From Steroidobacteraceae bacterium (lineage in GTDB: Bacteria > Pseudomonadota > Gammaproteobacteria > Steroidobacterales > Steroidobacteraceae), in the NCBI GenBank assembly GCA_036557045.1, contig DATBIF010000033.1:1-37444 (forward strand): DNA of 37,444 bases, written 5' to 3'. Positions 1-19,580 of this stretch are shown in pieces. The notes beneath the pieces are model-generated. The model worked only from the letters and a program-made list of their open reading frames with translations. It did not search any database and was not told the DNA's origin. The first letter of the stretch is position 1; each line of letters begins with the position of its first letter. A program made the translations under genes and the position numbers.

Positions 1-81
1 CTGCTTACGGCGGTTTCGCAGGAGCTGTCAGGATTGAGCCGCCTGGCAGACAGTCAGCGCAGCCGGGAGCATTGAGAAGGC

Positions 82-1479
82 TCATCCGCCGATACCTTGG
101 ATCGGCGCAGCCGGGCCTTGGTCGGCACGGTCCAGGGCTGATGCCAATTCAACGATGCTGGGCGCGATCTCGACGGGCGCGTTAAAGGGCTGGCTCAGTG
201 AACGCGCCGCGAGTGGAAGCCGTGAGATCTCGGCTCGCGCGTGGTCGCGGGATTCGTCGAGCGTTGGTCGTGGGGAGGAGCGGCGGCCGGCGCGCATGAC
301 GGGCACGATCAGTGGCTCGCCTCGGCAGACATCGGTTTGCAGCGCGATCTCGTCCGCCATCAGTGTTCCGTCCGCGTCCACGCGGCGCATGACCTGTTTG
401 CGGCCCGGCCAGGTGGCCTTGCCAGCGGACCGCTTGCGGGTGGGACGGCCGGCGTATTCCTGCAGCTTGTAGGCGCAATCGAGCCATGGGTGGTCGGCGG
501 CGACGTCGAGGCTCGTACCGACGCCGAATCCGTCAGCGGGTGTCCCCTCGGCGAGCAGCTGTTCGATCGTGAGCTCGTCGAGGCTGCCGCTCAGGAAGAT
601 CTGCGTATCGCCGCAGCCGCCTGCGTCGAGGATTCTGCGCACGCCGCGGGCGAGGCTGCCCAGCTCGCCGCTGTCAATGCGCACCGCCTGGATCCGGATC
701 CCGGAAGGGCGCAGTTCCCGCGCCAGCTCCACTACGCGTTGCGCGGCGCGCAGTGTGTCGTAGGTATCGATGAGCAAAGTGTTCGCCGTTGGAAAGCTGC
801 GCGCGAAATGCCGAAAGGCGTCGATCTCGGAGGTGTGCGCCTGGACGAAGGAATGCGCCATCGTTCCGTACAGGGGAATATTGAAGCGGCGCCCGGCCGC
901 CACCGTTGCCGTGCCCCCGAAACCCGCCAGGTAGGCGGCCCGCGAGGCGAGGATCCCCGCTTCTGCGCCGTGTGCGCGGCGCAAGCCGAAGTCCACAAGC
1001 GTGCGCCCGCGCGCGGCGAGGACGCAGCGAGCAGCCTTGCTCGCAATCACCGTCTGAAAGTGCAGCAGGTTGATGAGGCGCGTCTCGACGAGCTGGGCCT
1101 GCGAAAGCGGTGCCGTTACCCGCACCAGCGGTTCGCCGGCGAAGAAGACGGTGCCCTCGCGCATGGCATCGACGTTCCCTTCGAAGCGCAATCGTGCGAG
1201 CCAGTCGAGAAAGGACCGCTGAAACCGGCCGGTCGCCTCGAGCCAGCCGATCTCTTCGGGCGTGAAACGCAGTCCTTCAAGGTACTCGAGCAGCTGCTCC
1301 AGGCCGGCTGCGATGAGGAAGTTGCGACGTTCGGGCAAGCGGCGCACGAAGAACTCGAACACGGCCGTCTCGTCCATGCCCCGTTCGAAGTAGCTGCTGA
1401 GCATCGTCAGCTGATACAGGTCGGTGAGCAGCGCCCCGTGGTCCTGCTCCGTCGAGGTGCCGTCGGCGCCGCGATTCAC
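82..1479 (-). CDS. pncB: nicotinate phosphoribosyltransferase (NAD salvage)
   Basis: 465-aa ORF. LLTDLYQLTM, FFVRRLP, LHFQT and YGTMAHSF segments are typical of the NAPRTase family. GTG start overlaps the upstream pncA stop (GTGA, 1476-1479). Confidence 0.9.
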   Translation of the reverse strand: MNRGADGTSTEQDHGALLTDLYQLTMLSSYFERGMDETAVFEFFVRRLPERRNFLIAAGLEQLLEYLEGLRFTPEEIGWLEATGRFQRSFLDWLARLRFEGNVDAMREGTVFFAGEPLVRVTAPLSQAQLVETRLINLLHFQTVIASKAARCVLAARGRTLVDFGLRRAHGAEAGILASRAAYLAGFGGTATVAAGRRFNIPLYGTMAHSFVQAHTSEIDAFRHFARSFPTANTLLIDTYDTLRAAQRVVELARELRPSGIRIQAVRIDSGELGSLARGVRRILDAGGCGDTQIFLSGSLDELTIEQLLAEGTPADGFGVGTSLDVAADHPWLDCAYKLQEYAGRPTRKRSAGKATWPGRKQVMRRVDADGTLMADEIALQTDVCRGEPLIVPVMRAGRRSSPRPTLDESRDHARAEISRLPLAARSLSQPFNAPVEIAPSIVELASALDRADQGPAAPIQGIGG

Positions 1480-2153
1480 GCCGCCTTCTCCGGCTCGCGC
1501 AACGCGCTGGAGTCGATCAGGCGGGCACCGGCGGCACGCATCTCCTCGAGGGCGCGCTCACCGTCTCCCGCGCGCACGTCAACGGCACGAACCGCATCCG
1601 TCAGGACCACAACCTCGAAACCCTCGGCACGGGCATCGAGCGCCGTCGCCCGCACGCAGTAATCAGTGGCCAGACCGCCGATGAACAGCCGGCCCACACC
1701 GAGCGCACGCAACTCCGACGCCAACCCGGTCTCCTGGAAGGCGGAATAGGCATCGCGCTGCTCGCTCGTCGCCTTCGAGATCACGCGTGCCGAACCGATG
1801 ACGTGTAGCGCGGGCGCAAAGCGCGCGCCGCGCGTTCCGGCAATGCAGTGCGCGGGCCAGGGGCCACCCTGGGAGCGGAAGCTGCAGTGGCGCTCGGGAT
1901 GCCAGTCGCGCGAGTAGAGGACCGGCCTGGCGCTGCGCGCAAAAGCATCGATACATCGGTTGAGCGGCGCGACGACCGCGTCGCCATCAGGGACGGCCAA
2001 CGCACCGCCTGGCAGGAAGTCGACCTGCAGGTCGACGACCAGCAGGGCATCAGCCGGCGCAATGTCTATTTCGGTCGCCACGTCACGCTCACTGGGCCCG
2101 GTGGCAGAGTATAACGTCGCGCCCGGGCCGAAATCGGCGCGCAAGTGTGCCAA
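1476..2153 (-). CDS. pncA: nicotinamidase / pyrazinamidase (isochorismatase family)
   Basis: ALLVVDLQVDF, SRDWHP, PAHC and GLATDYCV (catalytic Cys) motifs. Coupled to pncB. Start is uncertain: 2153 is TTG, and an in-frame GTG at 2081 is an alternative. Confidence 0.85.
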   Translation of the reverse strand: MAHLRADFGPGATLYSATGPSERDVATEIDIAPADALLVVDLQVDFLPGGALAVPDGDAVVAPLNRCIDAFARSARPVLYSRDWHPERHCSFRSQGGPWPAHCIAGTRGARFAPALHVIGSARVISKATSEQRDAYSAFQETGLASELRALGVGRLFIGGLATDYCVRATALDARAEGFEVVVLTDAVRAVDVRAGDGERALEEMRAAGARLIDSSALREPEKAA

Positions 2154-2179
2154 GGATGCCGGACGGCCTACGTATTTCC

Positions 2180-2208
2180 CACGAGCGCGTAACGCGCGTC
2201 CCCTCGTG
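2180..2208. promoter_or_regulatory. nested palindrome in the pncA / prs divergent region
   Basis: CACGAG (2180-2185) ... CTCGTG (2203-2208) enclose GCGCGT-A-ACGCGC (2185-2197). CGTATTT at 2171-2177 shares the AAATACG core (gene strand) with the 12-mer at 7669 and 19615. Confidence 0.35.
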
Positions 2209-2221
2209 CACGCTCACCGTG

Positions 2222-3211
2222 ATGAAGACCGACGCGCCAATCGCGCTCTTTGCACCGCAGGCCACGCATCGACTGGGTGCGGCGGTGGCAGCTGCACTCG
2301 GCACTGAGCTCGCACGGCATGAGGAGCGGCGCTTCGCAGGTGGTGAGTTCAAGATCAGGCCGCTCGAGTCAGTGCGCGGCCGGCACGCATGGGTGCTCCA
2401 GTCGCTGTATGGCACCGCGGGTGCGAGCGCCTGCGACCGGTTGTGCGAGCAGCTGTTTCTCGCGGGCGCGATCCGTGATGCGGGCGCGGAACATGTCGGG
2501 CTGCTGTTTCCGTACCTGGCATTTGCGCGCAAGGATCGGCGCACCAAGGCGCGCGATCCGCTGACCTCACGTTACGTCGCCCAGATGTGCGAAGCTGTCG
2601 GCGTTGACCGAGTCGCGGCGGTCGAGGTGCACAATCCGGCGGCTTTCGAGAATGCGCACCGCATTCCCGCGGAGCATCTCTCGCTGACGCGCATGTTCGC
2701 GGAGCATTTCGCGCATCGCTTCTCCGCGGCGTCGGTGGCGGTGGTGTCGCCGGATCTGGGTGGCTCCAAGCGCGCGCAGCTGCTGCGCGAGGCGCTGCAG
2801 CGACGAATCGGGGGCGACGTCGAATTCGGTTGTGTCGAGAAACGGCGCAGCGGCGACGTGGTGAGCGGCGGGCGGCTGGTCGGCGAGGTCGCGGGCCGGC
2901 AGGTGATCGTGCTCGACGACCTCATCAGCAGTGGCGACACAATGCGGCGCGCGGCGCGTATCTGCCGTGAGGCCGGAGCGCGCGGCGTCCACGCGGCGGC
3001 GGCGCACGCGCCGTTCGCCCCGGATGCCCTGCACAATCTCGCGGCGCCGGAATTCGACAGCCTCACGATCACGGACACGGTGCCCCTCTCGGGCGAAGCG
3101 AGCGCAGCGCTCGGGTACGCGACCGTGCTGCCCGTGGCGGAGCTCATCGCCCGCGCAACGGCCTGCATCGAGGGGGATGGATCGCTCAGCGACTTGCTGG
3201 AACGGGGTTGA
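2222..3211 (+). CDS. prs: ribose-phosphate pyrophosphokinase (PRPP synthetase)
   Basis: RFAGGEFKIRPLESVRG, VVSPDLGGSKRA and VIVLDDLISSGDTM (PRPP loop) match the Prs layout. The ATG at 2222 (MKTDAPIALF) fits the family N-terminus better than the GTG at 2147. Confidence 0.85.
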   Translation: MKTDAPIALFAPQATHRLGAAVAAALGTELARHEERRFAGGEFKIRPLESVRGRHAWVLQSLYGTAGASACDRLCEQLFLAGAIRDAGAEHVGLLFPYLAFARKDRRTKARDPLTSRYVAQMCEAVGVDRVAAVEVHNPAAFENAHRIPAEHLSLTRMFAEHFAHRFSAASVAVVSPDLGGSKRAQLLREALQRRIGGDVEFGCVEKRRSGDVVSGGRLVGEVAGRQVIVLDDLISSGDTMRRAARICREAGARGVHAAAAHAPFAPDALHNLAAPEFDSLTITDTVPLSGEASAALGYATVLPVAELIARATACIEGDGSLSDLLERG

Positions 3212-4235
3212 ACTGCGCTTCGAGTCCCCGGCAGACGGCCAGCCGGGCGCGCTGCAGGTAATCGCTCATGCGTGCGAGCAGGAGCGGGCGGTCCGCGTCG
3301 CTCTCCACGAGCCGCCAGGCGGCCAGGCGCGCACGGATGAAAGCCCGGTTGCTCGAATAGAAGGCGAGCAGCGCTGCCGCAGCGGCCGGACCTTCCGGCG
3401 CGTGGCGCTGCAGATCGAGAGTGTCCGCAGGCAATCCCAGACGCTCGCATTCGAGGGCGAGGAAGCTCAGCTCCTCGAGGGGATCGAGCAGGCGCAACTC
3501 CCGGTCGAAATCCAGGCAATCGATGATGAGGATGGGCGGCCCCAGCGAGATGTGCTCGGGTCTGAGGTCGCCGTGGCACTCGCGGATGTGTCCGTCCTCG
3601 GCGCGGCGCACCAGTGTCGGGCGCAATCTCTCGAGAAGCTGGCGCTGGAGCGACGCCAGGTCGGCGACGCCAGTCTGATCGGGGGCGGCCACGGCCGCCG
3701 TGACTGCAGCGGCGTTGAGCTCGATGGTTTCGTCGAGACGCCGGCAATACTCCGCGCCGTTCAGCGCGACTGGGGAGAGCTGCCGGTAGAAATTCCACAG
3801 ATGGCGCAGCAGCGCATCCAGGTCGGCGGCATCGCGAGCGCCCGAGGAGACGACACGGTCGAGCATTCGAGCGGCGGGCAGGCGGCGCATGTGCACGAGC
3901 CAGTCCACGGGCTCGCCGGCAACCGCACCGAGGTGCCAGGCGCCGTCCGCGAGCGCGACGAGCGGCATCACATCGAGGTAGACGCCAGGAGCGAGCGCGC
4001 GATTGAGGCGCAACTCTTCGCGGCACGCCGCCTGGCGCGCGTCCAGGTTCAGCGTATCGATGCCGTGATACCGAATCGGCTTGCGCAGCTTGTAGGCGTG
4101 ACGGGGCGTGAGGAACACCCAGGCGAAATGAGTCTCGATGCTCTCCACCTGAGCGCCGGGCTCGCCGAGATTGACACCCGCCGACAGGAACTGCACCTTG
4201 CGAGCGAGTTCTGCGGTCGCGTTCAGTTCTGCCAT
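3186..4235 (-). CDS. APH/choline-kinase-like phosphotransferase family protein, substrate unknown
   Basis: 349-aa ORF with a kinase catalytic loop CHGDLRPEHISL and a metal-binding IIDCLDFD segment. ATG start with a G-rich SD. Its 3' end overlaps the convergent prs 3' end by 26 nt. Confidence 0.65.
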   Translation of the reverse strand: MAELNATAELARKVQFLSAGVNLGEPGAQVESIETHFAWVFLTPRHAYKLRKPIRYHGIDTLNLDARQAACREELRLNRALAPGVYLDVMPLVALADGAWHLGAVAGEPVDWLVHMRRLPAARMLDRVVSSGARDAADLDALLRHLWNFYRQLSPVALNGAEYCRRLDETIELNAAAVTAAVAAPDQTGVADLASLQRQLLERLRPTLVRRAEDGHIRECHGDLRPEHISLGPPILIIDCLDFDRELRLLDPLEELSFLALECERLGLPADTLDLQRHAPEGPAAAAALLAFYSSNRAFIRARLAAWRLVESDADRPLLLARMSDYLQRARLAVCRGLEAQFNPVPASR

Positions 4236-4258
4236 TTCCCGCCCCCTCGGCCCGGGAG

Positions 4259-4274
4259 AGTACGCACAAGTACT
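4259..4274. promoter_or_regulatory. AGTAC-N6-GTACT inverted repeat in the kinase / CBS divergent region
   Basis: agtacgcacaagtact lies between divergent starts at 4235 and 4341. A short 5-bp-arm palindrome only. Confidence 0.25.
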
Positions 4275-4340
4275 GACGCGCGCTCGGCCGGGCGTCGGCT
4301 AGCATCCTGCCATAGCGTTGAGCGTCCAGGAGAACTCCCC

Positions 4341-4796
4341 ATGAATATCGCCTCACTCTGCAGCGGCAATGTCGTCACCATTCGCGAGTTCGAAGAACTG
4401 AGTGCCGCGGCGCAGCTCATGCGCGAGAAGCACGTCGGCTATCTGGTCGTCGTGACGCCGGACGTCGGCGGTGGCGGGTCGCGACCCATCGGAGTATTGA
4501 CGGATCGCGATATCGTCGTCACGGTCGTCGCCAAGGACACTGATGCCCGTACGCTGCGCGTCGGCGATGTCATGACACGCAATCCGGTCGTGGTCAGTGA
4601 GTCGGATTCGGTCGAGCAGGCGCTGCAGCGCATGCGGAGCATCGGCGTGCGCCGTCTGCCGGTGGTGGGCTCCAACGGTGCGCTGGTCGGGGTGCTGTCG
4701 CTGGATGAGATCATCGACGCTCTGGCCGCAGCGCTGCAGAACGTCGGCAGCTCCATCAAGGCCGAGCGGCGCATCGAGACGGCACTGCGCCCCTGA
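4341..4796 (+). CDS. CBS domain pair protein
   Basis: 151 aa. Two CBS repeats (VVTIREFEELSAAAQLMREKHVGYLVVV... and VMTRNPVVVSESDSVEQALQRMRSIGVRRLPVV). GGAGA SD lies 7 nt upstream of the ATG. Confidence 0.85.
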   Translation: MNIASLCSGNVVTIREFEELSAAAQLMREKHVGYLVVVTPDVGGGGSRPIGVLTDRDIVVTVVAKDTDARTLRVGDVMTRNPVVVSESDSVEQALQRMRSIGVRRLPVVGSNGALVGVLSLDEIIDALAAALQNVGSSIKAERRIETALRP

Positions 4797-4836
4797 AGCT
4801 GCGCGATTCCTGAGCTGGTTCGAGACGATGGCGTCG

Positions 4837-4921
4837 TTCGAGAGGACGGCGCGTCGCGTCAGGGGTGCGTGCGAATAACGCTTGTTAGAGAAGACGGCGC
4901 GTCGCGTCACGCGTGCGTGCG
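4837..4921. repeat. 37-nt imperfect direct repeat (period 48 nt) spanning the glgC stop codon
   Basis: ttcgagaggacggcgcgtcgcgtcaggggtgcgtgcg (4837-4873) versus ttagagaagacggcgcgtcgcgtcacgcgtgcgtgcg (4885-4921), 4 mismatches. The second copy contains the glgC stop (4907-4909). Confidence 0.7.
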
Positions 4922-6214
4922 TGCCAATGCGAGCGGCTTCTCCTTCTCGGACAACCGATCCTTGGTGACAAGCACCACGCCGCCCGGGCTCATCTCAAAG
5001 CGCGCGGCATCTTCCGCGGGATTCTCCCCGATCACGGTGTCGTCAGGTATGTCGCAACCGGCCTCGACGATGACGCGCCGCAGGCGGCAGCGCACGCCGA
5101 TGCGGCTATCGGGAAGCAGGACGGATTGCACCACGCTTGATCCGCGGCCAATGTCCACGCACGGACCGAGCACCGAGCTCACCACCTCCGCTGCGCGCAG
5201 TACGCAACCGTCCGAGAGCAGCGAATCGCTGATGCGACCGCTCCCGTCGGCTGTCATGATGCGTGCCGGGGGCAGCTGGCGGTTGTCCGTGAAGATGGGC
5301 CATCCGGGATCGAACAGGGCGGACTGTATTTTCGCGTCGAGCAGCTCCATGTGCGTCTTCCAGTAGGAATCGAGCGTGCCGACGTCGCGCCAGAAGGCGG
5401 GTGCGCCAGTCGCCGCATCCGTGAACTCGAAGATGCCGACCGTGCCTTGCCCGACCGCACCCGGGAGAATGTCGCGGCCGAAATCGTGGCTCGAGGCTCC
5501 GTTGGCCGCATCGCGCTCGAGGCGCTCGTACAGATAGTCGGCATTGAAGACGTACACGCCCATCGAGGCGAGCACGTGTTCACCGTGCGCGTGGAGCTGA
5601 GCCGGGTGCGGCTTCTCCATGAAGTCAACGGCACGATCGGCCGCGCCCGCGCGCAACACACCGAACTGCTCGGCGTCCTGGCGCGCGATCCGCACGCAGG
5701 CGATGGTCGTTTCGGCTCCGCAACGCACGTGATGCGCCAGCAGGCGGCGATAGTCCATCCGATAGACGTGATCGCCCGCGAGCACCAGGATGTACCGAGG
5801 GTTCTGCGCGCGGATCATGTCGATGTTCTGGTGCACGGCATTGGCCGTGCCGCTGTACCAATCGGGCTGCAGGCGCTGTTGGGCTGGCCAGAGCTCGACG
5901 AACTCGCCGAGATTTCGTGGCAGAAAGCTCCAGGCCTGTTCGAGATGCCGGATCAGCGACTGCGACTTGTACTGCGTGAGCACGCCTACACGCCGGACGC
6001 CCGAATGCACGCAGTTCGACAGCGAAAAGTCGATATTGCGGAACTTGCCGCCAAAGGGCAGCGCCGGCTTGCATTCCCAGCGCGTCAAGGCACCGAGCCG
6101 CGTTCCGTTGCCGCCCGCGAGCACCAGCGCCAGCGTTGCCGCGGCGGGCGCAGGGGACGGCGCGGCACTGGCCCGGGACGACAAGCTGCGCACGGCGTGC
6201 AAGTCGGACCTCAT
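4907..6214 (-). CDS. glgC: glucose-1-phosphate adenylyltransferase
   Basis: LVLAGGNGTRLGALT, KPALPFGGKFRNIDFSLSNC and GVLTQYKSQSL are hallmark GlgC motifs. The ATG at 6214 overlaps the stop of the upstream ElaB-like gene (ATGA, 6211-6214), so it is preferred over the ORF-track start at 6277. Confidence 0.9.
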   Translation of the reverse strand: MRSDLHAVRSLSSRASAAPSPAPAAATLALVLAGGNGTRLGALTRWECKPALPFGGKFRNIDFSLSNCVHSGVRRVGVLTQYKSQSLIRHLEQAWSFLPRNLGEFVELWPAQQRLQPDWYSGTANAVHQNIDMIRAQNPRYILVLAGDHVYRMDYRRLLAHHVRCGAETTIACVRIARQDAEQFGVLRAGAADRAVDFMEKPHPAQLHAHGEHVLASMGVYVFNADYLYERLERDAANGASSHDFGRDILPGAVGQGTVGIFEFTDAATGAPAFWRDVGTLDSYWKTHMELLDAKIQSALFDPGWPIFTDNRQLPPARIMTADGSGRISDSLLSDGCVLRAAEVVSSVLGPCVDIGRGSSVVQSVLLPDSRIGVRCRLRRVIVEAGCDIPDDTVIGENPAEDAARFEMSPGGVVLVTKDRLSEKEKPLALARTHA

Positions 6215-6501
6215 TGCCGTCGCATCAGCAGGCCGACCACCAGTCCGGCGCTGCCGGCCAGGGCCATGTACTGCCACGGCTTTTCATGGACGTTTCGATC
6301 CGCGTTGCGCACCGGGCGCAGCACGTCGTGCTGCGCGGTCGCGAGAGCGCTCCGGAAGTTGCTGAGCGACTCCTGCGCGCGGCGGCGGGCATTGCAGACC
6401 TGCTCGCTGTCGCTGTGGGCGGTCGCCTGCAACAGCTCCTCAGCGTGCGTGATGAGTCGCTGCAAGTCATCGCGCAACGTCCCCACTTCTGTCTGCGACA
6501 T
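6211..6501 (-). CDS. ElaB/YqjD/DUF883-family membrane-anchored stress protein
   Basis: 96 aa from MSQTEV. Helical N-part (DDLQRLITHAEELL) is followed by a C-terminal PWQYMALAGSAGLVVGLLM anchor, as in ElaB/YqjD. GGGAG SD lies upstream of the ATG at 6501. Confidence 0.75.
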   Translation of the reverse strand: MSQTEVGTLRDDLQRLITHAEELLQATAHSDSEQVCNARRRAQESLSNFRSALATAQHDVLRPVRNADRNVHEKPWQYMALAGSAGLVVGLLMRRQ

Positions 6502-6570
6502 GACTGACTCCCGATCCCCACAAATTGACTGCCTCGCAGTATCGCCGCGATCCGGTGTGTCACGCTGTAA

Positions 6571-6604
6571 GTAGTTTCCGTTGGCGTGCACTAGGTAGTT
6601 TCCG
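6571..6604. repeat. two exact copies of GTAGTTTCCG spaced 24 nt, upstream of the ElaB-like gene
   Basis: 6571-6580 and 6595-6604 are identical 10-mers. They read CGGAAACTAC in the direction of the downstream minus-strand gene and lie 70-103 nt upstream of its ATG. Confidence 0.6.
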
Positions 6605-6692
6605 AAGCGGATGCCGCGGCTCAGAGCTGGCCCGGAGACGTGCCCGAGGCTGACCGATCAAGGTGTGAAGCGGCGCCAGGAGCGCCCCGAGC

Positions 6693-7382
6693 TCACGCGG
6701 CGCCTCGGGAGCGTGCCTTGGTTTCAAGCGCCTCCTGGCGCGCGCGCTCGAGGAGGGCGCGTACTTGGGCGTCCTCCAGTTGTTCGAAGTCCACGTACCA
6801 CTCGCCGATCGCCCAAAACGCAGGCGGCGTTTCCAGGACCACGAGCTGGTCAGCCACCTCCGCGATGCGCGCCGCCGCCTCGGTGGAAGCGACCGGTGCC
6901 GCCACGATGACACTCGCAGCTCCCGCCTGGCGCGCCGCCTGGACAGCGGCAATCATGGTGGCGCCCGTGGCGAGACCGTCATCCACCAGGACCGCGGTCG
7001 TGCCGTTGAGATCGAGCGGCGCCAGACCGCCACGATAGGCGCGCTCGCGCCGCTGCAGCTCCGCGTGCTCGCGTCTCGCGAGCGCGTCGAATTCCAGGTC
7101 GAGATTCGCGAAACGCGACAGGACAGGCTCGCGCACGACGACGCCACCGGCGGCAATCGCTCCGATGGCAAGCTCCGGCTGACCCGGCATTCCCACCTTG
7201 CGCACGACCAGTACGTCCAGCGGTGCGCACAAGGCGCGCGCCACTTCATAGGCTACGGGCACTCCGCCGCGCGGCAGTCCCAGCACGATCAGCGGGCGCG
7301 CCAGCCTGAGACTGCCGACTGCCCTCGCCAGCTCGCGCCCCGCAGCCGCACGGTCCTCAAAGATACGCAACTGCTCCGCCAT
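6693..7382 (-). CDS. phosphoribosyltransferase-domain protein (type I PRTase fold, substrate unknown)
   Basis: LGLPRGGVPVA and the PRPP-binding loop AVLVDDGLATGATM. The ATG at 7382 has a GAGGGG SD 8 nt upstream. The GTG at 7391 is the alternative. Confidence 0.8.
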   Translation of the reverse strand: MAEQLRIFEDRAAAGRELARAVGSLRLARPLIVLGLPRGGVPVAYEVARALCAPLDVLVVRKVGMPGQPELAIGAIAAGGVVVREPVLSRFANLDLEFDALARREHAELQRRERAYRGGLAPLDLNGTTAVLVDDGLATGATMIAAVQAARQAGAASVIVAAPVASTEAAARIAEVADQLVVLETPPAFWAIGEWYVDFEQLEDAQVRALLERARQEALETKARSRGAA

Positions 7383-7437
7383 GCTCTTCACCCCTCGGGT
7401 TCACTTCGACACTGCACCGCTTCGGGCGCGCACGCCC

Positions 7438-7617
7438 TCAACGGCGCGCGCTCTGTCCGGAGGCCCACCGCTTCGCCTGCGCGATGGCGACCCGGATCGC
7501 CTTGCCTTCGTCATAACCCTGCTCGAGCAACGCGTTGGCGATCTCGATCGCCTTCTGACGCACCGAGGGCGCGAGCCGTTTCATCGAAGCCGGGTAGTAC
7601 GCGGGATTCCAAGGCAT
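7438..7617 (-). CDS. small conserved-looking protein, possibly ChaB-like
   Basis: 59 aa, MPWNPAYYPASMKRLAPSVRQKAIEIANALLEQGYDEGKAIRVAIAQAKRW. The pattern resembles the ChaB helical repeat. The rest of the 202-aa ORF upstream is Arg/Ser-rich shadow sequence. Confidence 0.45.
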   Translation of the reverse strand: MPWNPAYYPASMKRLAPSVRQKAIEIANALLEQGYDEGKAIRVAIAQAKRWASGQSARR

Positions 7618-7668
7618 ACGCTGTTCACCGTTAAAACTGAGTATCCGGCTGCGGGAGTCGGGCTGCCC

Positions 7669-7680
7669 ATCCGTATTTGT
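7669..7680 (-). promoter_or_regulatory. copy 1 of the shared AT-rich 12-mer ATCCGTATTTGT (ACAAATACGGAT on the gene strand)
   Basis: Identical 12-mer at 19615-19626. Both copies lie in intergenic DNA upstream of minus-strand genes, here 52-63 nt upstream of the ChaB-like ATG. Confidence 0.35.
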
Positions 7681-7780
7681 GCGGTGATGCGCGCCGGACG
7701 GCACCCGCGGGACGAGACGGACACCTTCGGCAACGGCGAGCACCCGCCACCTCGCATCGTCGGCCAAGCGTTCAAGGGCG

Positions 7781-9832
7781 TCACGGCACGTTTGCATGCA
7801 GCTCTTCGAGCCAGACGTCCGCGTGCGCGTCGCTCGGGGCCCGCCAGTCCCCGCGTGGCGAAAGCGAGCCGCCCGAACCGATCTTCGGCGCGTTGGGCAA
7901 CGCCGAACGCTTGAACTGGCTGGTCTCGAAGAACCGTCGCAGGAAGATCTCCAGCCAGCGCTTGATCTCTGTGAGGTCGTACGCGCGCCGTTGCGCCAGC
8001 GTAATCGATTCGGGCCAGGCGCCGCGCTCGATGCTCGACCAGGCATGCGAGGCGAGGAACGCGACCTTGCTCGGGCGAAATCCGAAGCGGCTCAGGTAGT
8101 AGAGATTGAAGTCCTGCAGCTCGTAGGGACCGAGCGTCGATTCGGCCGACTGCGGTGGCGTGCCCGGCGCATGCGGAATCAGCTCCGGGCTGATGCGTGT
8201 TGCGAGGATATGAGTCAGTACGCGGGCGAGCGGCTCCTCGACTGCGCCGCTGTGTGCCGCCCAGCGGATCAGGTGCTGCACCAGCGTCTTCGGCACCGAG
8301 GCATTCACGGCGTAGTGGGACATCTGATCGCCGACACCGTAGGTCGTGTAGCCGAGCGCCAGTTCCGAAAGGTCGCTGGTGCCGACGACGAGCCCGCCGT
8401 GCAGATTGGCCAGGCGAAACAGATGCGAGGCGCGCTCGCCGGCCTGCACGTTCTCGTAGGTCACATCGTAACGCGGCTCACCGCGCGCACCCGGATGCCC
8501 GATGTCCTCGAGCAGGCGCGATGCGGCGGGACGGATGTCGATCTCCTGCGCACTGACCCCGAGCGCACGCATGAGCTCGAGCGCGTCGTGATGCGTACGA
8601 CGGCTCGTGGCGAAGCCCGGCAGCGTGTAGCCGAGCACGTTGCTGCGCGGCAGGTGCAGCTGATCGACCGCCTTGGCGCACACGATCAGTGCCTGTGTGG
8701 AATCGAGCCCGCCGGACACACCGATCACCAGCTTGTGGATGCCGGTGGCTTCCATGCGGCGCACCAGGCCCTGCACCTGGATACTGTAGGCCTCGCGACA
8801 ACGCTCTTCGAGGGTGCGAGGGTCGGCCGGAACGTACGGGAAGCGCGCGACGTTGCGCTCCAGAGGCGCGGCGCCGCCCGGGCGCTCGAGGTCGAAGCTT
8901 ACATGACGCCAGCGCGCCAGCGCGTCACGATGCAGCTGCACGCAGTCACCGAAGCTCGTCGTGCGCATGCGCTCCTGGCGCAGGCGCTCGAGATCGACAT
9001 CCGCCACGACGAGCTCGTCCTGGTAGCTGAAGCGCCGCGACTCTGTCAGCACTTCGCCGTTCTCGCACACGAGCGCGTGCCCGTCCCAGGCGAGATCGGT
9101 CGTCGACTCGCCGTAACCCGCCCCGGCATACAGGTAGGCGGCGATGCACTTCGCCGACTGGGAAGTGCACAGCAGCCGGCGGTAGTCGCACTTACCGATG
9201 GTTACATCGCTCGCCGACAGGTTGGCTAGCACGGTCGCCCCGGCCAGCGCGGCATGAGTGCTCGGCGGCAGCGGTACCCAGACGTCTTCGCAGATCTCGA
9301 CGTGTAAGGCGAATTCCGGCCAGTCGCGCGCCTCGAAGACGAGGCCGGCGCCGAAGGGCGCACGCTGCCCCGCGACCGTGATCGAGTCCGAAAGCGCCTG
9401 CGCCGACGCGGTGAACTGACGCTTCTCGTAGAACTCGCGGTAGTTCGGCAGATAACTCTTGGGAATGACTCCCAGCAGCCGGCCCCTGCAGATCATGAGT
9501 GCGCAGTTGAACAATTTACCCTCCGCACGCAGCGGCGCGCCCACCACCAGCACGAGTGGCCATGCGCGGCTCGCTGCGAGCAGCTCGTGGATCGCCGTTT
9601 CCACGGCATCGAGCAGGGCATCCTGCTGAAACAGATCCTCGTTGGAATAGCCCGAGAGGCCGAGCTCCGGAAACAGCGCCATCACGGCCTTGCGCTCGCT
9701 CGCCCGGCGCGCAAGTTCGAGCGTGTGCCGCAGGTTCGCTGCCGGTACGCCCAACTCGACGCGTGGCGTCGCGACGGCCACGCGGCAGAAGCCATGCGTG
9801 TACGCCGAGGCGAAGTCGGCCGCTCTGTTCAT
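7781..9832 (-). CDS. nadE: glutamine-dependent NAD+ synthetase (large two-domain form)
   Basis: 683 aa. N-terminal nitrilase/CN-hydrolase domain ([18 protein letters not shown]) plus a C-terminal NAD synthetase domain with the P-loop GVSGGLDST. Confidence 0.9.
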
Positions 9833-9878
9833 GTGCCACGCTCGTCTCGCGCGACGGCGCGACGTGCCGCTTGCTGTT

Positions 9879-11675
9879 TCATGTCCCGGTCTGCGGCTGG
9901 TGCGCCGGGAGGCGCTCCACGACCCCGGGGCGGGCGACGGAGCGATGCACGGTGCAGCCTTTCAGGTCGAGCTCGTAGGCCGCCTCGTAGATCACGGCGA
10001 CGTCCTGTGCTCTCGAATCCTCGGGCAGCGCAATCGTCTTGGAGATCGCTCCATCCACGTAGGGCTGCAAGGCCGCCTGCATCAGGAGGTGCTCGCGTGG
10101 CGCGATCGCCTGCCCCTCGAGGAAAAAATCCGGTGGCCTGGCCTCGCTGTGGAGGTCCCGCCACGCCGCAAAGGCAGGGTCGACGAGGTTGAAAGTATGT
10201 GGCACGCCGTTCGCATCGAGCACGCGCCGCTCGACCTCGAGGCCGAAGATGGGCTCGATGCCGCTGCTCACGTTGTTGGCGAGCAGGCTGATCGTACCCG
10301 CGGGTGCGATCGCGGTCAGGTGGCTGTTGCGGATGCCATCGCGCGCGATGCGCGCCTGGATGGCGTCTGGCAACGAGCGGACGAAGGGCCTGGCGAGATA
10401 CTGGTCGGCATCGAAGGCCGGGAAGGCGCCTTTCTCCCGTGCCAGCTCGATCGACGCCTCGTAGGCCGCGTCGCGCACCGCACGCATCAGGGTCGCTGCC
10501 GCGTGCCGTCCGGCTTCGCTGTCATACCGCAGTCGCAGCATCGCCAGGGCGTCGGCGAGCCCGGTGATGCCGAGACCGATGCGACGCGCGCGGCGAACTG
10601 CCTCGCGTTGCGCCGGGAGCGCGACCCCCGCGATGTCGATGACATCGTCGAGAAAGCGCACGGCAATACGTGTCGCCGCCCGCATGGCATCCTCGTCCAG
10701 GCGCGCGCTCCGCGCGAAGGCATCGCGGACGAAGGCACCCGCGTTGAGCGATCCGAGATTGCACGCGCCGTAGGGCGGCAACGGTTCCTCGCCGCACGGG
10801 TTGGTCGCGCTCAAGCGTTCGCAGTAGCCGAGGTTGTTCATCGCATTGATGTAGTCGATGAAGAGTACGCCCGGCTCGGCGCAATCGAAGGCGCTCGTGC
10901 ACAGCTGCTCCCAGAGCGCGCGTGCGCGCAGTGTCTTATGGACGCGGCAGCGGACCGGCCCCATGGCACCGCTCCAGCAGCGCTGCACCCATCGGGAACC
11001 GGGCGCGGCTTCTTCACTCGATGCCGGATCGGGGAACACGAGCGGCCATTCGCGATCGGTCTTGACCGCCTCCATGAACGCATCGCTGATCAAGACCGAA
11101 AGGTTGAAGTGTCGCAATGCGCGCGGCGCACGTTTGACGTCGATGAATTCCTCGATGTCCGGGTGGTCGCAGCGCAGTGTGGCCATCATCGCGCCGCGCC
11201 GTGCGCTGGTCGAAAGCATCGTCGCGCACATCACGTCCCACAGCGCCATGAAGGACACGGGCCCCGAGGCGATCGTGCCGGTCGCGCGTGCACGGCTGCC
11301 GCGCGGGCGCAGCGTCGAGAAGTCGTAACCGACGCCGCCGCCCTGTTGCATCGTGAGCGCACCCTCCTTCAGGGCCTCGAAGATTGCCTCCAGCGAATCG
11401 CCGATCGTGCCCATGACGAAGCAGTTGAACAGCGTCAGCCGGCGGCTGCTGCCGGCGCCGGCGAGGATGCGGCCGCCGGGGAGGAAACGAAGGTCCTGCA
11501 GCAAGTCGAAGAAGCGTTGCTGCCAGAGCGCGGGCTCGGTTTCGATCGCGGCGGCCGCGCGTGCTACGCGTACCCAGCTATCGACGATCGTCTGTTCGGC
11601 TGGCCGCGCTTCGGCGTCGCGGTAGCGCGTCTCCCAGATGAACTGCGCGATGGTCGAGAGCGAAGGAACAGCCAT
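9879..11675 (-). CDS. nrdJ: adenosylcobalamin-dependent (class II) ribonucleotide reductase
   Basis: 598 aa. [19 protein letters not shown] active-site region and [12 protein letters not shown] segment are typical of class II RNR. ATG start. Confidence 0.85.
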
Positions 11676-11693
11676 GGCGAGCGTGGCGCACGC

Positions 11694-12161
11694 TCAGGTC
11701 TCGAACATCTCGCGCGTCAGGTGAGCACGCAGGGCCGTTTCGTCCTGCTTGTGCACCAGATCCTTTGGCACTTCGCCGACGACCCGGTCGTGCACTGCTT
11801 TCGGGAGCGCTGCGCGCAACATGCCCAGGAACGATGGACCCGCTATCAGCACCAGACGGTCGAAGCCGCCGGCGCTGGCGGCGGTCAGCGTATCGGCAAT
11901 CCGGCGCGCGAACAGCTCGGCCTCGTGCTTGTGCGGCCGTCGCTCACCGCCGGTGGCGTGATGCGCGACTGCGCCGTGGCGCGCGCCTGCGGCGGGAGCG
12001 TGATCGAACACCCGCCCCGGGCGGTCCGACTTGAAGTCGCGATCGTGCAGGCGAGCCTTGGGATCGCTCAGGTGACCTGCGGGACGCAGCACCGCCTCCA
12101 CCCCGACGCTGTCGTAGAAGCGCGCTTCACCCTGATCGGCGACCACGATTCGTACACGCAC
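11694..12161 (-). CDS. host-attachment-family protein (Host_attach-like, function unknown)
   Basis: 155 aa. VVADQGEARFY start, HEAELFARRIADTL and LVLIAGPSFLGMLRAALP...EVPKDL match my memory of the family pattern. GTG start with a GGAG SD 6 nt upstream. Confidence 0.65.
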   Translation of the reverse strand: MRVRIVVADQGEARFYDSVGVEAVLRPAGHLSDPKARLHDRDFKSDRPGRVFDHAPAAGARHGAVAHHATGGERRPHKHEAELFARRIADTLTAASAGGFDRLVLIAGPSFLGMLRAALPKAVHDRVVGEVPKDLVHKQDETALRAHLTREMFET

Positions 12162-12177
12162 GGCTCGCTCCTGGACT

Positions 12178-12576
12178 TCAGAGTTTGGGGATGGGGGGAA
12201 CCGCTCGCGTCTTCTCGTGCTGGCGCTGGCAGTTCAGGCAACGCTTGGCGGTCGGGTAGGCCTGCAGCCGCTGGGGCGCGATCGACGCGCCGCAGCCGAT
12301 GCACAGGCCGAATGTCCCGGCGGCGACGCGCTTGAGCGCGGCATCGATGTCACGGATCTCACCCGCATCGCGGTTCACCTCTGCCACGTCGATACCCGCG
12401 AGCAATTCGGCAAGCGACTCGTCCTTGCGATCGTGAACCTCACCGGCGAGGCGCGCATGGCCCTCGTCGCGAGAGCGCAGGAGCGTGGCGTGAATTTCCT
12501 GGCGCAGAGCCTCGCGTCGCGATTGCAGCTCGCGCTCCACGGTTGAGAAGTCAGTGCGTCGCAAGGTGTTCTGCAT
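12178..12576 (-). CDS. DksA/TraR-family C4 zinc-finger protein
   Basis: CIGCGASIAPQRLQAYPTAKRCLNC (CxxC-N17-CxxC) follows a coiled-coil region. The ATG at 12576 has a GGAGA SD. The alternative GTG at 12600 would overlap the groEL stop. Confidence 0.8.
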   Translation of the reverse strand: MQNTLRRTDFSTVERELQSRREALRQEIHATLLRSRDEGHARLAGEVHDRKDESLAELLAGIDVAEVNRDAGEIRDIDAALKRVAAGTFGLCIGCGASIAPQRLQAYPTAKRCLNCQRQHEKTRAVPPIPKL

Positions 12577-12596
12577 GCATCTCTCCAGCACGGCGC

Positions 12597-14216
12597 TCAC
12601 ATCGCCGGCTCTGCGGCCGGGCTCTCTTCATGCTTCTCCGGTTTCTCGGTGACGGTCGCTTCGGTCAGGAGCAGCACGCTCGCCACGGAGACTGCATTCT
12701 CGAGCGCCAGGCGCACGACCTTGGCCGGATCGACGATGCCCGCCTCGAGGAGGTCCACGTACTGCTTGCGCGCGGCGTCGAAACCGATATTGCCGCTGCC
12801 ATTGAGCATGCGGTCCACGACCACGCCACCGTCCGCAGAGGAATTCTCCGCGATCTGCCGCGTGGGGGCTTCGAGGGCGCGCCGCAGGATCTGCACACCC
12901 GTGCGTTCATCACCCGTGCACTCGGCCTCGAGTGCCGCCACCGCCGGCGCCGCGCGCAGCAGCGCCAGGCCGCCTCCCGGCACGATGCCCTCGGCCACCG
13001 CCGCCTTCGTGGAGCTGATCGCATCGTCGAGCGCATCCTTGCGTGACTTCATCTCCGATTCCGAAGGAGCCCCGACGCGGATCACGGCCACGCCGCCCGA
13101 GAGCTTGGCGAGACGCTCCTCGAGCTTCTCGCGATCGTAGTCGCTGGTGGCACGCTCGAGCTCCTTGCGGATCATCTGGATCCGCCCCTGGATCTCGGCC
13201 TTGTCGCCGGCGCCGCCAATGATGGTGGTGTTGTCCTTGTCGACCACCACGCGTTTCGCCTGTCCGAGCTGGCTGAGCTTGACGTCTTCCAGCTTGAAGC
13301 CGAGCTCCTCGGACACGAGCTCTCCGCCCGTGAGCGTGGCGATGTCCTGGAGCAGCGCCTTGCGGCGATCGCCGAAACCGGGCGCCTTCACCGCTGCATT
13401 CTTCAATACCCCGCGGATGCGGTTCACGATCAGGGTGGCAAGCGCCTCGCTCTCGATGTCCTCGGCGATCACCAGGATCGGCCGCCCCGATTTCGCCACC
13501 TGCTCGAGCAGCGGGATGATGTCCTTGAGGATGTTGAGCTTGCGGTCGCAGATGAGGATGTACGGCTCTTCGAGCACCGCTTCCATCGTGCCGGGATCCG
13601 TGACGAAGTAGGGCGACAGGTAACCGCGATCGAACTGCAGACCCTCGACGACCTCGAGCGTGGTCTCGGTGGTCTTCGATTCTTCGACGGTGATCACTCC
13701 CTCGCCGCCGACTCTCTCCATGGCCTGCGCCACCAGCTCGCCGATGGCTGCGTCGTTGTGAGCGGAGATGGTCGCGACCTGCGCCTTCTCCTTGCGGCTG
13801 CTGACCGGCTTCGCGAGCTGCTTGAGGGCCTTGACGGCGACTTCCGCGCCACGGTCCAGGCCGCGCTTCAGATCGATGGCGCTCGCGCCGGCGGCGACGT
13901 TGCGTACGCCCTCCGCGTAGATGGCATGCGCGAGAATCGTGGCGGTGCTGGTGCCGTCGCCGACCGCATCGCCGGTCTTCTCGGCAGCCTGGCGCAGCAT
14001 CTGCGCGCCGAGATTCTCCTCCGGGTCCTCGAGCTCCAGCTCCTTGGCAATCGTGACACCGTCGTTGCACACGATCGGCGTACCCCATTTCTTCTGGATG
14101 AGCACCGACTTGGACTTCGGTCCGAGCGTGATGCGCACAGCATCCGCGAGCTGACTCGTGCCGCGCAGCACCTTCTCGCGCGCAGCAGAGCGAAACAAGA
14201 CCTGCTTGGCGCCCAT
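12597..14216 (-). CDS. groEL: chaperonin GroEL paralogue (no adjacent groES)
   Basis: 539 aa, unmistakable Cpn60 ([41 protein letters not shown]). The C-terminus ends [16 protein letters not shown] instead of a GGM repeat. GAGGAG SD. Confidence 0.95.
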
Positions 14217-14231
14217 TGCGGCTCCTCGGTC

Positions 14232-14495
14232 TTATGCGTCGATCAGAGCAGCCGGCGCCGCGGCCGTCAGCGCGCGATCGATCTCGCGCTCGGCCTGCAG
14301 CCAGTCCTCCATTTCCTGGCCTGGACAGAAGTTCCGCCGCTCGGCGAGGAAGTAGGCGGCTTCGCAAATCATCGAATGCCGGCGTTCCGGTTCGATGTAC
14401 GCCGGGCTGCCAGCGGCGGCTGGCGTGTCCGCGCTGCGCTCAGGTTGCGCAATGGCGCTCTTGGCCTTGGGCAGGCGGTGCTGGGGTCGTGCCAT
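14232..14495 (-). CDS. DUF2934-like small protein
   Basis: 87 aa from MARPQHR. The C-terminal ICEAAYFLAERRNFCPGQEMEDWLQAEREI resembles the DUF2934 signature. GGAGG SD lies 7 nt upstream of the ATG at 14495. Confidence 0.6.
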   Translation of the reverse strand: MARPQHRLPKAKSAIAQPERSADTPAAAGSPAYIEPERRHSMICEAAYFLAERRNFCPGQEMEDWLQAEREIDRALTAAAPAALIDA

Positions 14496-14603
14496 GACAA
14501 ATCCTCCATACGACAGTTTGAAATGTTGGTCGCCTGCACTCGCGAGCGCCATACGCACTTGCCCCAATGCGCCCTCGGAAACCACGTCTTCCGGCTTACG
14601 AGC

Positions 14604-16908: not shown

Positions 16909-16911
16909 TGG

Positions 16912-17835: not shown

Positions 17836-17843
17836 GCGGCTCC

Positions 17844-19076: not shown

Positions 19077-19082
19077 CGATGC

Positions 19083-19580
19083 TCAGGCTGCGTGACGCAC
19101 ATGCTCTGCATGCGTACGGGCCGGCTTGCCGTGCGTCGTACGCACGGGCCGACGATGACGCGTGAGCTTGTCGATGTTGGCATTGAGCGCATCGACGCGC
19201 TTGCTGAGCGCCGCTATCTCCTCTGCGCTTGGCACGCCGAGTTGATTGAGCGCCCGGTGGACGCGGATCTGAAACATCTTCTCGAGATTCTCGAACGCAT
19301 CGCCCGCCTGTTCACGAGCCTGCTCCACGCGCGCTGCGATTCCCCCCTGTACGTCGCTCAAGGCGCCACGCACGGCCTTGGCCGTCGCGCGCCGCGTCGC
19401 GTTGTGCACACGGGCACCTTCCGCGACGAGGTCCTTGAAGAGTTTCGGCCCCTGGGTTTGTGTCCTGGACGCCGCGCCCAGGCCCGCGAGCCACACCTGG
19501 TGCACGGCTTCCAATAACCGCGCCTGCGCACGACCCGCCTGAGCGGTGCGTGATCTTGCAGCCTTCTTGCGTGTTGCCAT
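19083..19580 (-). CDS. PhaF/PhaI-type granule-associated protein (phasin)
   Basis: From MATRKK. VWLAGLGA...GPKLFKDLVAEG and LGVPSAEEIAALSKRVDALNANIDKLT align closely with the Pseudomonas PhaF/PhaI N-terminal domain as I recall it. Confidence 0.8.
   Translation of the reverse strand: MATRKKAARSRTAQAGRAQARLLEAVHQVWLAGLGAASRTQTQGPKLFKDLVAEGARVHNATRRATAKAVRGALSDVQGGIAARVEQAREQAGDAFENLEKMFQIRVHRALNQLGVPSAEEIAALSKRVDALNANIDKLTRHRRPVRTTHGKPARTHAEHVRHAA

Follow-up and report, generated by a model that had tools for sequence, protein, structure and literature searches.

The stretch analyzed here, called the window below, is a 37,444-nt sequence of a Steroidobacteraceae bacterium (contig DATBIF010000033.1, GCA_036557045.1). 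A preliminary description of positions 82-14495 had read a string of genes there as the mirror of the dormancy regulon governed by DosR in Mycobacterium tuberculosis. On balance, and with a confidence a little better than even, the region is part of a multi-operon low-oxygen or dormancy-type regulon, probably activated directly by the two-component system FixLJ. The concept of such a programme is precedented by DosR, by the low-oxygen-activated (lxa) locus of Burkholderia cenocepacia and by Anr, and the stretch is probably a variant of the low-oxygen dormancy programmes of tuberculosis bacilli and Burkholderia. The hypoxic or non-replicating survival programme suggested earlier gains from the DosR parallels, from FixL/FixJ neighbours in related loci and from FixJ-type boxes, and loses the idea that the string is a conserved synteny block. 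The control circuit had been left blank in that description; a FixLJ-type system encoded elsewhere is now the leading candidate.

First, a promoter box is shared between the window and its relatives. The comparison set consists of 80 loci (±10 kb) centred on homologues of Host_attach, one of the proteins of the window, in species-representative genomes; the loci were selected via Host_attach, and their genes were predicted with our own simple caller. The closest genomes belong to uncultured soil Gammaproteobacteria, many of them labelled Steroidobacteraceae. In these loci the 7-mer most enriched in non-coding DNA is ATACGTA, with 58 occurrences there and 8 in coding DNA (p = 5e-41). The motif found de novo is AAGTACG(T/C)ATTG, the instances of which align to AAGTACGTATTG with a core GTACGTA(T/G); its TTG is the -35 element, and TAGAGT or TACAGT follows 16-18 nt downstream. 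A sigma-54 reading of the motif was ruled out by its spacing, by eye. The box is found upstream of Host_attach, universal stress proteins (USPs), CBS pairs, Hsp20, BON and EF-hand proteins, PolX, PAS kinases and regulators. Counted in the same 80 loci on which the box matrix was trained, it stands ahead of 12/12 single-USP genes, 0/15 ABC-F/DEAD-box controls and 11% of other first genes. The window was kept out of the training, and of its eight matches at or above 12 bits seven fall in the 6.2% of its DNA that is non-coding (p = 2.7e-8), with 0.09 matches expected at this threshold from shuffled window non-coding DNA. Most transcription units of the window are preceded by such a match.

The identity of the box is suggested by experimental work on FixJ. 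Selection of binding sites from random sequences (SELEX) with FixJ of S. meliloti gave two site classes, GTAGTTTCCC and GTAMGTAG, and the S. meliloti fixK site reads TAAGTAATTTCCCTTA, with a FixJ footprint at PfixK from -57 to -31 (both from one comparative-genomics paper). In R. palustris, PfixK carries GTACGTAG, which is bound by FixJ. The de novo motif equals these published consensi, so that on sequence grounds it is a FixJ-type site. For GTAMGTAG the loci give 18 non-coding and 10 coding occurrences (p = 2e-9), and for GTAGTTTCC 8 non-coding and a single coding one (p = 1e-6). The predicted boxes of the window are as follows, the best-scoring first.

33240..33258, minus strand: GGAGAGTACGCATTGTCAG, the best-scoring FixJ-type box (18.5 bits), with -35 TTGTCA, ahead of the acyl-CoA synthetase/dehydrogenase operon.
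19677..19695, minus strand: GGGAAGTACGCATCGTCAC, phasin-operon box (14.8 bits).
6561..6603, minus strand: two boxes ahead of DUF883-glgC, reading GTAAGTAGTTTCC and CTAGGTAGTTTCC on the plus strand (6585-6603, 14.7 bits; 6561-6579, 8.7 bits).
36089..36107, strand undefined: CAATACGTGCAAG in plus-strand reading (14.3 bits), upstream of cytochrome c and archease.
14545..14563, minus strand: GGCAAGTGCGTATGGCGCT (13.4 bits), in the 109-nt gap 14496-14603, ahead of DUF2934-groEL-dksA-Host_attach-nrdJ-nadE.
19609..19627, minus strand: second, weaker box of the phasin promoter (13.2 bits).
7663..7681, minus strand: CACAAATACGGATGGGCAG, a FixJ-type box variant (12.6 bits), ahead of a small open reading frame (ORF) and a phosphoribosyltransferase (PRTase) gene.
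2162..2181, strand undefined: CTACGTATTTCCC, a weak FixJ-type box (7.6 bits), in the divergent pncA/prs intergenic region.
27356-27374: the sole coding match of at least 12 bits, inside a gene.

Both SELEX classes are present at 6561-6603, because the region reads GTAAGTAGTTTCC and CTAGGTAGTTTCC; it holds an exact GTAAGTAG and two copies of GTAGTTTCC. Within the weak pncA/prs box, TACGTATTTCC resembles the SELEX class GTAGTTTCCC and occurs across the loci three times in non-coding and never in coding DNA. A generic scan of positions 1-20000 gave a single sigma-70-like promoter, TCGTCA-17-TATAGT (19683-19655); it is that of the phasin operon, and it starts inside the box at 19677-19695. An identical 12-mer, ACAAATACGGAT, was also observed twice on the minus strand, at 7666-7677 and 19612-19623, and is a weak box variant by score. 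In the phasin promoter the 12-mer follows the predicted -10 on the downstream side; this copy may act as an additional operator, or it may be a site of another kind.

Boxes of other oxygen-linked regulators were also looked for. The FNR/FixK box TTGAT-N4-ATCAA has no exact match in the window or the loci; with up to one mismatch there is none in the window, and with up to two mismatches all 10 window matches lie inside genes. The K-box of FxkR, GTTACA-N4-GTTACA, is absent.

Second, the likely sensor and regulator are encoded in sister loci. By alignment, true FixL orthologues number about nine among the recurrent PAS kinases and come from eight loci. Their haem-PAS domain aligns without gaps to that of BjFixL (1DP6, E = 9e-35), and the kinase core scores 216 bits against BjFixL. 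The proximal His and the distal Arg of the BjFixL haem pocket, which we take to be His200 and Arg220 in BjFixL numbering, are kept in these orthologues. Their genes lie directly upstream of a REC-LuxR regulator gene, that is, in the kinase-then-response-regulator order of fixLJ, and the regulator matches FixJ (5XSO) with E = 5e-41 and 144 bits.

The genes of the window on which the rest of the argument depends are listed below. As the G+C content is 62-70%, flat along the length of the window, genes were chosen by codon statistics together with Pfam and NCBIfam; the limits of the APH and CBS genes were set by hand from the Pfam results.

1..75, plus strand: partial 3' end of a further CBS-pair gene; the 24 residues it encodes share 79% identity with the C-terminus of the CBS-pair protein L006_5380_5835.
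82..1479, minus strand: pncB, nicotinate phosphoribosyltransferase (Pfam NAPRTase_N/NAPRTase/NAPRTase_C; NF006696 634 bits, above cut-off).
1476..2153 (start maybe 2081), minus strand: pncA-type nicotinamidase, isochorismatase fold (PF00857 120 bits; NF008623 162 bits against a cut-off of 174).
2219..3211 (ORF open from 2147), plus strand: Prs-like ribose-phosphate diphosphokinase (Pribosyltran_N, Pribosyltran, Pribosyl_synth; TIGR01251 216 bits).
3186..4235, minus strand: APH-like protein of phosphotransferase fold (PF01636 25 bits against a cut-off of 23, marginal).
4299..4796 (start approximate), plus strand: stand-alone CBS-pair protein (PF00571 twice, 95 bits).
4907..6277, minus strand: glgC, glucose-1-phosphate adenylyltransferase type (NTP_transferase 185 bits, plus LbH_GLGC).
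6211..6591 (likely start ATG 6501), minus strand: DUF883/ElaB-like protein (Pfam DUF883, DUF883_C).
6693..7391, minus strand: orphan type-I PRTase of the TT1426 family (PF00156 63 bits; PDB 1WD5, TT1426, E = 8e-40).
7438..7617, minus strand: small, uncertain ORF of 59 residues between nadE and the PRTase gene, with a Shine-Dalgarno-like GGTGA upstream and no match in Pfam.
7781..9832, minus strand: large glutamine-dependent NAD+ synthetase NadE (CN_hydrolase and NAD_synthase; NF002730 1034 bits).
9879..11675, minus strand: class II (adenosylcobalamin-dependent) ribonucleotide reductase (RNR) NrdJ/Z (Ribonuc_red_lgC 392 bits; TIGR02504 543 bits against a cut-off of 400).
11694..12161, minus strand: Host_attach/baeRF_family12 protein of 155 residues (PF10116 116 bits; PF18856 103 bits).
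12178..12600, minus strand: DksA/TraR-type C4 zinc-finger protein (PF01258 52 bits; CxxC...CxxC and a DxxDxS tip-like motif in the translation).
12597..14216, minus strand: orphan GroEL paralogue (PF00118 254 bits), with no groES upstream and a C-terminus lacking GGM repeats.
14232..14495, minus strand: DUF2934 protein (PF11154 56 bits; ATG with a GGAGGA Shine-Dalgarno).
14604..19580, minus strand: GMC oxidoreductase, unknown 237-residue protein, alpha/beta hydrolase, patatin lipase and phasin (Pfam), tightly packed.
20595..22154, minus strand: WS/DGAT wax-ester/triacylglycerol synthase (WS_DGAT_cat and WS_DGAT_C).
22133..25611, plus strand: fusion of a fatty acyl-CoA reductase with a short-chain dehydrogenase, then an aldehyde dehydrogenase (NAD_binding_4 and adh_short; Aldedh 285 bits).
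25612..33227, minus strand: acyl-CoA synthetase, acyl carrier protein, 2-oxoacid dehydrogenase E2, E1-beta and E1-alpha, acyl-CoA synthetase (Pfam).
34594-34905: ArsR-type regulator.
36887..37303, plus strand: archease (PF01951 146 bits), with a cytochrome c gene nearby that shares the upstream box.

All genes named in the preliminary description, DUF2934 included, were recovered by Pfam and NCBIfam at or near the places it had assigned to them, and the WS/DGAT gene it put a few kb further on is the one at 20595-22154 (minus strand). The all-minus run with short or overlapping junctions, drawn there from 4907 to 14495, also exists and extends in fact to the phasin start; it is interrupted by three longer gaps (6502-6692, 7618-7780 and 14496-14603), and the phasin ATG is at 19580. 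It was also right that the window holds no regulator of the DosR, FNR or NarL type, its only regulators being the ArsR-type protein and the DksA-like protein; response regulators and Crp/FNR proteins are missing from it altogether. Some of the assignments call for comment. The APH-like protein is kept in 14 related loci at 28-68% identity, and a PDB search with it gave no relative. PDB matches of the CBS-pair protein include Rv2626c/Hrp1 (1XKF, E = 3.8e-12) over the full length, and archaeal CBS proteins match better. For the DksA-like protein, every NCBIfam DksA model scored under its cut-off. Predicted intrinsic terminators in the window show no excess over shuffled sequence, so that the operon ends given here are putative. 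An Rfam scan of the window gave nothing at gathering scores.

The resemblance to the DosR regulon holds on checking. The members named in the preliminary description (nrdZ, Rv0571c, pncB2, Rv2626c or hrp1, tgs1 and Rv2004c) are all on published DosR lists. At the level of Pfam or fold families, not of orthology, there are eight DosR counterparts in the window: class II RNR (nrdZ), NAPRTase (pncB2), PRTase (Rv0571c), CBS pair (Rv2626c), WS/DGAT (tgs1), APH-like protein (Rv2004c), Balon-like protein (Rv2629) and archease (Rv2630). Five more are found in sister loci, namely USPs, Hsp20 (hspX), the hibernation-promoting factor HPF (Rv0079), a P-type ATPase (ctpF) and RtcB (Rv2631). As in the DosR system, control would lie with a haem sensor kinase and a regulator of the NarL/FixJ superfamily, if the controller is of the FixLJ type encoded in sister loci. 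The differences concern both the control and the content. DosS and DosT sense by GAF-haem, whereas the FixL of the sister loci would sense by PAS-haem, and the response regulator matches FixJ (144 bits) far above DevR (3C3W), to which its likeness is weak (E = 3e-11, 47 bits). The core of the 20-bp DosR box, GGGACT-N2-AGTCCC, is not enriched: with up to two mismatches it has 3 non-coding and 29 coding matches in the window and the 80 loci, and its sole window match is coding. NadE, PncA, Prs, GlgC, GroEL, the DksA-like protein and the wax-ester genes are extra members here, and the Balon-like protein consists of an M domain only. Nitroreductase or nitrate genes were not identified, though many rarer families in the loci were never annotated.

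The Balon-like member is Host_attach. An AlphaFold (AF2) model of this protein was built from 26 homologues, with a predicted local distance difference test score (pLDDT) of 77.7. By Foldseek, the PDB entry closest to it is 8V9J (E = 1.4e-6), the ribosome-bound Balon homologue Msmeg1130 of mycobacteria, and the other best matches are Psychrobacter Balon (8RD8), aRF1/eRF1 and Rv2629 (8V9K, E = 1.1e-3); the Foldseek probability is 1.0 against Balon and eRF1. The alignments span ~150 columns of targets of 360-440 residues, so that TM-scores are 0.2-0.26 by target and 0.5-0.56 by query. What is modelled is the central RNase-H-like (M) domain only, the N (decoding) and C (EF-Tu-binding) domains being absent. 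No invariant Gln that could correspond to the catalytic GGQ is found in the 26-sequence alignment. The most conserved residues are H39, R41, D42, S45, P48, G49, R50, V51, R61, G63 and H68, and the conserved loop (residues 39-73) is basic, occupies the position of the eRF1 GGQ loop and has a pLDDT below 50. Judged from this model, Host_attach is a single-domain relative of Balon and Rv2629 with an aeRF1-like fold, and it may bind the ribosome. Both Balon and Rv2629 act as hibernation factors in the ribosomal A site, and the latter is a member of the DosR regulon. Host_attach shares with Balon, Rv2629 and Msmeg1130 the M-domain fold without the GGQ Gln, and it differs from them in lacking the three-domain architecture. 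Such single-domain proteins are placed in the bacterial aeRF-1 (baeRF-1) clade, several families of which are tied to HPF and translational shutdown (Burroughs & Aravind). Balon and baeRF-1 genes are reported among HPF, Hsp20 and RtcB-type stress genes, and Host_attach genes are likewise so placed. If the assignment is true, the very widespread PF10116 'host attachment' family would gain a plausible role as a minimal Balon-like translation factor.

Third, the gene families of the window recur around Host_attach, in shuffled order. A tblastn search with 33 window proteins against the 80 loci found the order kept in fragments only (L006, L012, L023 and L045), and strict synteny was rejected; the order prs-APH-CBS-dksA-Host_attach of the window, for example, recurs in L006, and the lipid block is kept in L012, L023 and L045. 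Because of this fragmentation the synteny test was replaced by a census of families. Of the window families, CBS pairs occur in 26 loci, GroEL in 19-21, APH-like proteins in 14, cytochrome c in 13, Prs in 10-11, PRTase in 8-9, NrdJ in 7-9 and NadE in 3. The GroEL gene lies directly upstream of Host_attach in ~10 loci, and the NadE gene directly follows Host_attach in L022 and L069. Clustering of the predicted neighbours gave further families that the window lacks, namely tandem USPs (33 loci), PAS histidine kinases (16), P-type ATPase (15), alpha-glucan phosphorylase (15), REC-LuxR (FixJ-like) regulators (12), single USPs (12), Hsp20 (11), BON (10), phosphoenolpyruvate synthase PpsA (9), HPF/RaiA (9) and phosphofructokinase (8), with EF-hand proteins and PolX also among the recurrent neighbours. 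The neighbourhood is a loose, recombining assembly of stress genes and not an operon-like string. The picture of one conserved gene string thus has to be given up: modules recur, the order is shuffled among the 80 loci, and the window itself holds several transcription units. That the gene set travels together in synteny, which the preliminary description had proposed to check, was accordingly not borne out, even though the same families return.

The analysis shows the gene identities, their recurrence, the fold of Host_attach, the motif with its placement and the homology of FixL and FixJ; that FixJ binds, that oxygen is the signal, where the operons end and what the proteins do is inferred. 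The scheme we favour would work as follows. A FixL-type haem-PAS kinase, whose gene would lie in another part of the genome, would lose O2 and phosphorylate a FixJ-type regulator. This regulator would then bind boxes of the type AAGTACG(T/C)ATTG or GTAGTTTCC, which lie on or directly beside the -35 of sigma-70-type promoters that are weak by themselves. Some six to eight units would thereby be switched on, that is, pncA-pncB and prs; DUF883-glgC; the small ORF and PRTase; DUF2934-groEL-dksA-Host_attach-nrdJ-nadE; phasin-patatin-hydrolase-GMC; the acyl-CoA synthetase/2-oxoacid dehydrogenase operon; and cytochrome c with archease. The NAD pool would be maintained by nicotinamidase, NAPRTase and NadE, with phosphoribosyl pyrophosphate supplied by Prs, and deoxynucleoside triphosphates (dNTPs) would be made without O2 by the B12-dependent NrdJ/Z. 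Translation and transcription would be damped, and ribosome and RNA polymerase protected, through the Balon-like M-domain protein acting on the former and the DksA-like protein on the latter, together with DUF883/ElaB and the GroEL paralogue. Carbon would be stored and mobilised as glycogen and as wax ester or triacylglycerol bodies with phasin and lipases. Overall, such a programme would let a respiring cell survive without growth once oxygen runs out.

Several findings weigh against this scheme. The 37-kb window contains no fixLJ genes. In a search for more of its contig, the exact Host_attach and GroEL proteins were met only on metagenome contigs of 1.2-4.9 kb, and archease and pncB gave no record. 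The box might also be the site of some other LuxR-family regulator or represent the extended -35 of an alternative sigma factor. Most boxes of the window are degenerate, with TACGCA or TACGGA in place of TACGTA, and the -10 element following the box at 14545-14563 is poor. In sister loci the box is rare or absent ahead of nrdJ (0/5), groEL (1/11 as first gene), prs and the P-type ATPase. The membership of these four in the regulon therefore rests mainly on the window, and co-regulation of the genes highlighted in the preliminary description is less secure than that of the USP, CBS and Host_attach genes. The window scan is the only test independent of the loci on which the matrix was trained. 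Finally, the share of the recurrent families around Host_attach falls from 47% of genes within 2 kb to 14% at 8-10 kb, which speaks for the scheme, but the 'stress' families of this count had themselves been defined by recurrence in the same loci.

Another explanation is that the region is an island for general stress, stationary phase or desiccation, co-regulated by a signal other than oxygen, such as energy or redox state, nitric oxide or carbon monoxide, starvation or drought. Its control would pass through some other LuxR-family regulator, through the hybrid PAS kinases or through an alternative sigma factor. The functions of DksA-like protein, GroEL, DUF883/ElaB, BON, Hsp20, HPF and storage polymers are generic to dormancy and stress. 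The best solved relative of the response regulator is StyR (E = 2e-47, 164 bits), slightly ahead of FixJ. The remaining PAS kinases, more numerous than the FixL orthologues, are hybrid PAS-HK-REC proteins, in which the FixL-like PAS domain keeps the proximal His and has the distal Arg replaced (GIGR to G(A/I)GL); their genes are found in L004, L007, L011, L018, L019, L021, L025, L029, L030, L042, L053, L076 and L080. Without the distal Arg, these kinases may sense something other than O2. In addition, CTATAC-type -10 k-mers, which are RpoS-promoter-like, are also enriched in the non-coding DNA of the 80 loci. However, true FixL with the haem-pocket residues kept is encoded in operons of fixLJ order in at least 8 loci, the box equals experimentally derived FixJ consensi, and an O2-independent RNR suits an oxygen cue. 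We regard the stress island as a real possibility, though one well below an even chance.

It was also considered that unrelated housekeeping and metabolic genes happen to be neighbours, the DosR resemblance being a selection effect of reading annotations. Genes for NAD, phosphoribosyl pyrophosphate, glycogen and chaperonin functions are common, gene order is not kept in relatives, and the NAD genes pncB, pncA and nadE accompany Host_attach in just 2-3 other loci. On the other side, the families recur in shuffled form in up to 33/80 loci with a decay over distance, and the units share a promoter box whose placement in the window is far from random (p = 2.7e-8) and which housekeeping controls lack. 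A rough estimate puts the gathering of about eight genome-rare families in 37 kb far outside what chance would give, and independent evidence against chance comes from their recurrence in the 80 related loci. Mere adjacency is thus quite unlikely.

Least probable, and very unlikely indeed, is an NAD-centred conflict system, an anti-phage defence or a counter-measure to one, in which PncA, PncB, Prs, NadE and PRTase would rebuild NAD once it is depleted and the aeRF1-like protein would act on attacked ribosomes. Pairs of Prs-like and NAPRTase-like proteins may resemble phage NAD-reconstitution pathways. The suggestion that the baeRF-1 rescue pathway arose against ribosome-targeting effectors (Burroughs & Aravind) also fits, but PADLOC gave no match for ten proteins at E <= 1e-3, integrases and tRNA genes are absent from the window, the GC content is uniform (0.62-0.70), the neighbours are physiological stress genes and fixLJ rather than defence genes, and pncB scores as a full equivalog of the metabolic enzyme.

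The direct activation by FixLJ favoured here can be set beside two known systems apart from DosR. In B. cenocepacia, lxa spans BCAM0275a-BCAM0323 and is a clustered low-oxygen locus with USPs, alpha-crystallin, class II RNR, a cation ATPase and storage-polymer genes, and its authors noted the overlap with DosR. The lxa promoters have a motif of FNR/Anr type, TGA-N6-TCA, and the locus itself encodes Anr-like regulators. The preliminary description had named lxa as the Gram-negative comparator. In concept it serves as such, since both are low-oxygen survival clusters of aerobic proteobacteria with overlapping content. In regulation it does not, as the lxa box is of the FNR/Anr type whereas the boxes here are of the FixJ type and the strict form TTGAT-N4-ATCAA is absent (the scan covered strict FNR/FixK forms only, not the looser TGA-N6-TCA). 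Descriptions of lxa do not mention NAD salvage, PRTase, Host_attach, GroEL or a DksA-like protein. A 2025 review drew parallels between Anr, Lxa and DosR and suggested FixLJ-FixK control in Burkholderia.

The second system is the FixL-FixJ(-FixK) cascade of Alphaproteobacteria and the Burkholderia cepacia complex. It is matched here by the haem-PAS FixL and the FixJ-type response regulator of sister loci, and by boxes that agree with GTAMGTAG, GTAGTTTCCC and the R. palustris site GTACGTAG and lie at or next to the -35, comparable to the S. meliloti PfixK footprint. In the known systems FixJ acts directly on fixK, nifA and only a few genes besides, and it is through FixK/FNR boxes that the regulon is reached. 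Here, in contrast, FixK boxes are missing, and FixJ-type boxes appear to stand directly in front of dozens of structural stress genes. A wider proposal may be added, which is speculative and stands well short of an even chance. Soil Gammaproteobacteria of the Steroidobacteraceae type might possess a large dormancy regulon activated directly by FixJ with no FixK tier, whose core operon would couple a minimal Balon-like ribosome factor of one M domain, a DksA-like RNA polymerase factor and a dedicated GroEL to B12-dependent dNTP synthesis and NAD synthesis. Its nearly one-to-one functional match with DosR might in that case go back to a 'hibernate and maintain' tool-kit of obligate aerobes, either ancient or shared by horizontal transfer, that was rewired to different haem sensors in different phyla.

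If direct FixLJ activation is confirmed, such a hypoxic programme would be a recurrent tool-kit of aerobic soil bacteria, not one peculiar to mycobacteria and Burkholderia, and would comprise NAD and dNTP maintenance, damping of ribosome and RNA polymerase, chaperones and storage lipids. It would come with a concrete regulatory scheme, from FixL through FixJ to boxes at the -35, and would extend the range of genes known to be directly under FixJ, so far a few regulator genes, to structural stress genes. The orphan DosR genes for PRTase, APH-like and CBS-pair proteins, whose roles are not known, would be tied to a like neighbourhood in a distant phylum, which would help to prioritise them.

There are also some minor observations on the window and the loci. 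The 59-residue ORF at 7438-7617 bears a faint resemblance, by eye only, to ChaB-like small proteins. A DUF2934 gene precedes the GroEL paralogue also in L037 and L084. The WS/DGAT gene is divergent from those of acyl-CoA reductase and aldehyde dehydrogenase, and together with phasin, patatin and hydrolase they form a complete module for making and mobilising wax ester and triacylglycerol (20595-25611). At 33279-35895 there is a sulfur-handling module with a TauE sulfite exporter, a rhodanese-YgaP protein, the ArsR-type regulator and a divergent protein of metallo-beta-lactamase fold, maybe a persulfide dioxygenase; the box at 33240-33258 lies just downstream of it. Archease is the usual partner of the RNA ligase RtcB. 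In L049, an orthologous archease (77% identity) is encoded beside RtcB (14326-16179, 565 bits), ~5 kb from Host_attach, and Lon, BON, PRTase and a CBS pair in the vicinity echo Rv2629-Rv2630-Rv2631 of M. tuberculosis; in the genome studied here, an RtcB gene may lie just past the right edge of the window. In L014, L020, L024 and L033, which contain Host_attach, APH-like, nrdJ and prs genes, nrdJ has ~300 nt of non-coding DNA upstream with no box within 250 nt. Finally, a short element GCATCCGC(A/T)T is seen 8-12 nt upstream of some boxes, at ~6611-6618 (minus strand) in the window, ~8900 in L024 and ~9430 in L079, and a related k-mer, AATGCGGATGC, is enriched in the non-coding DNA of 13 loci.

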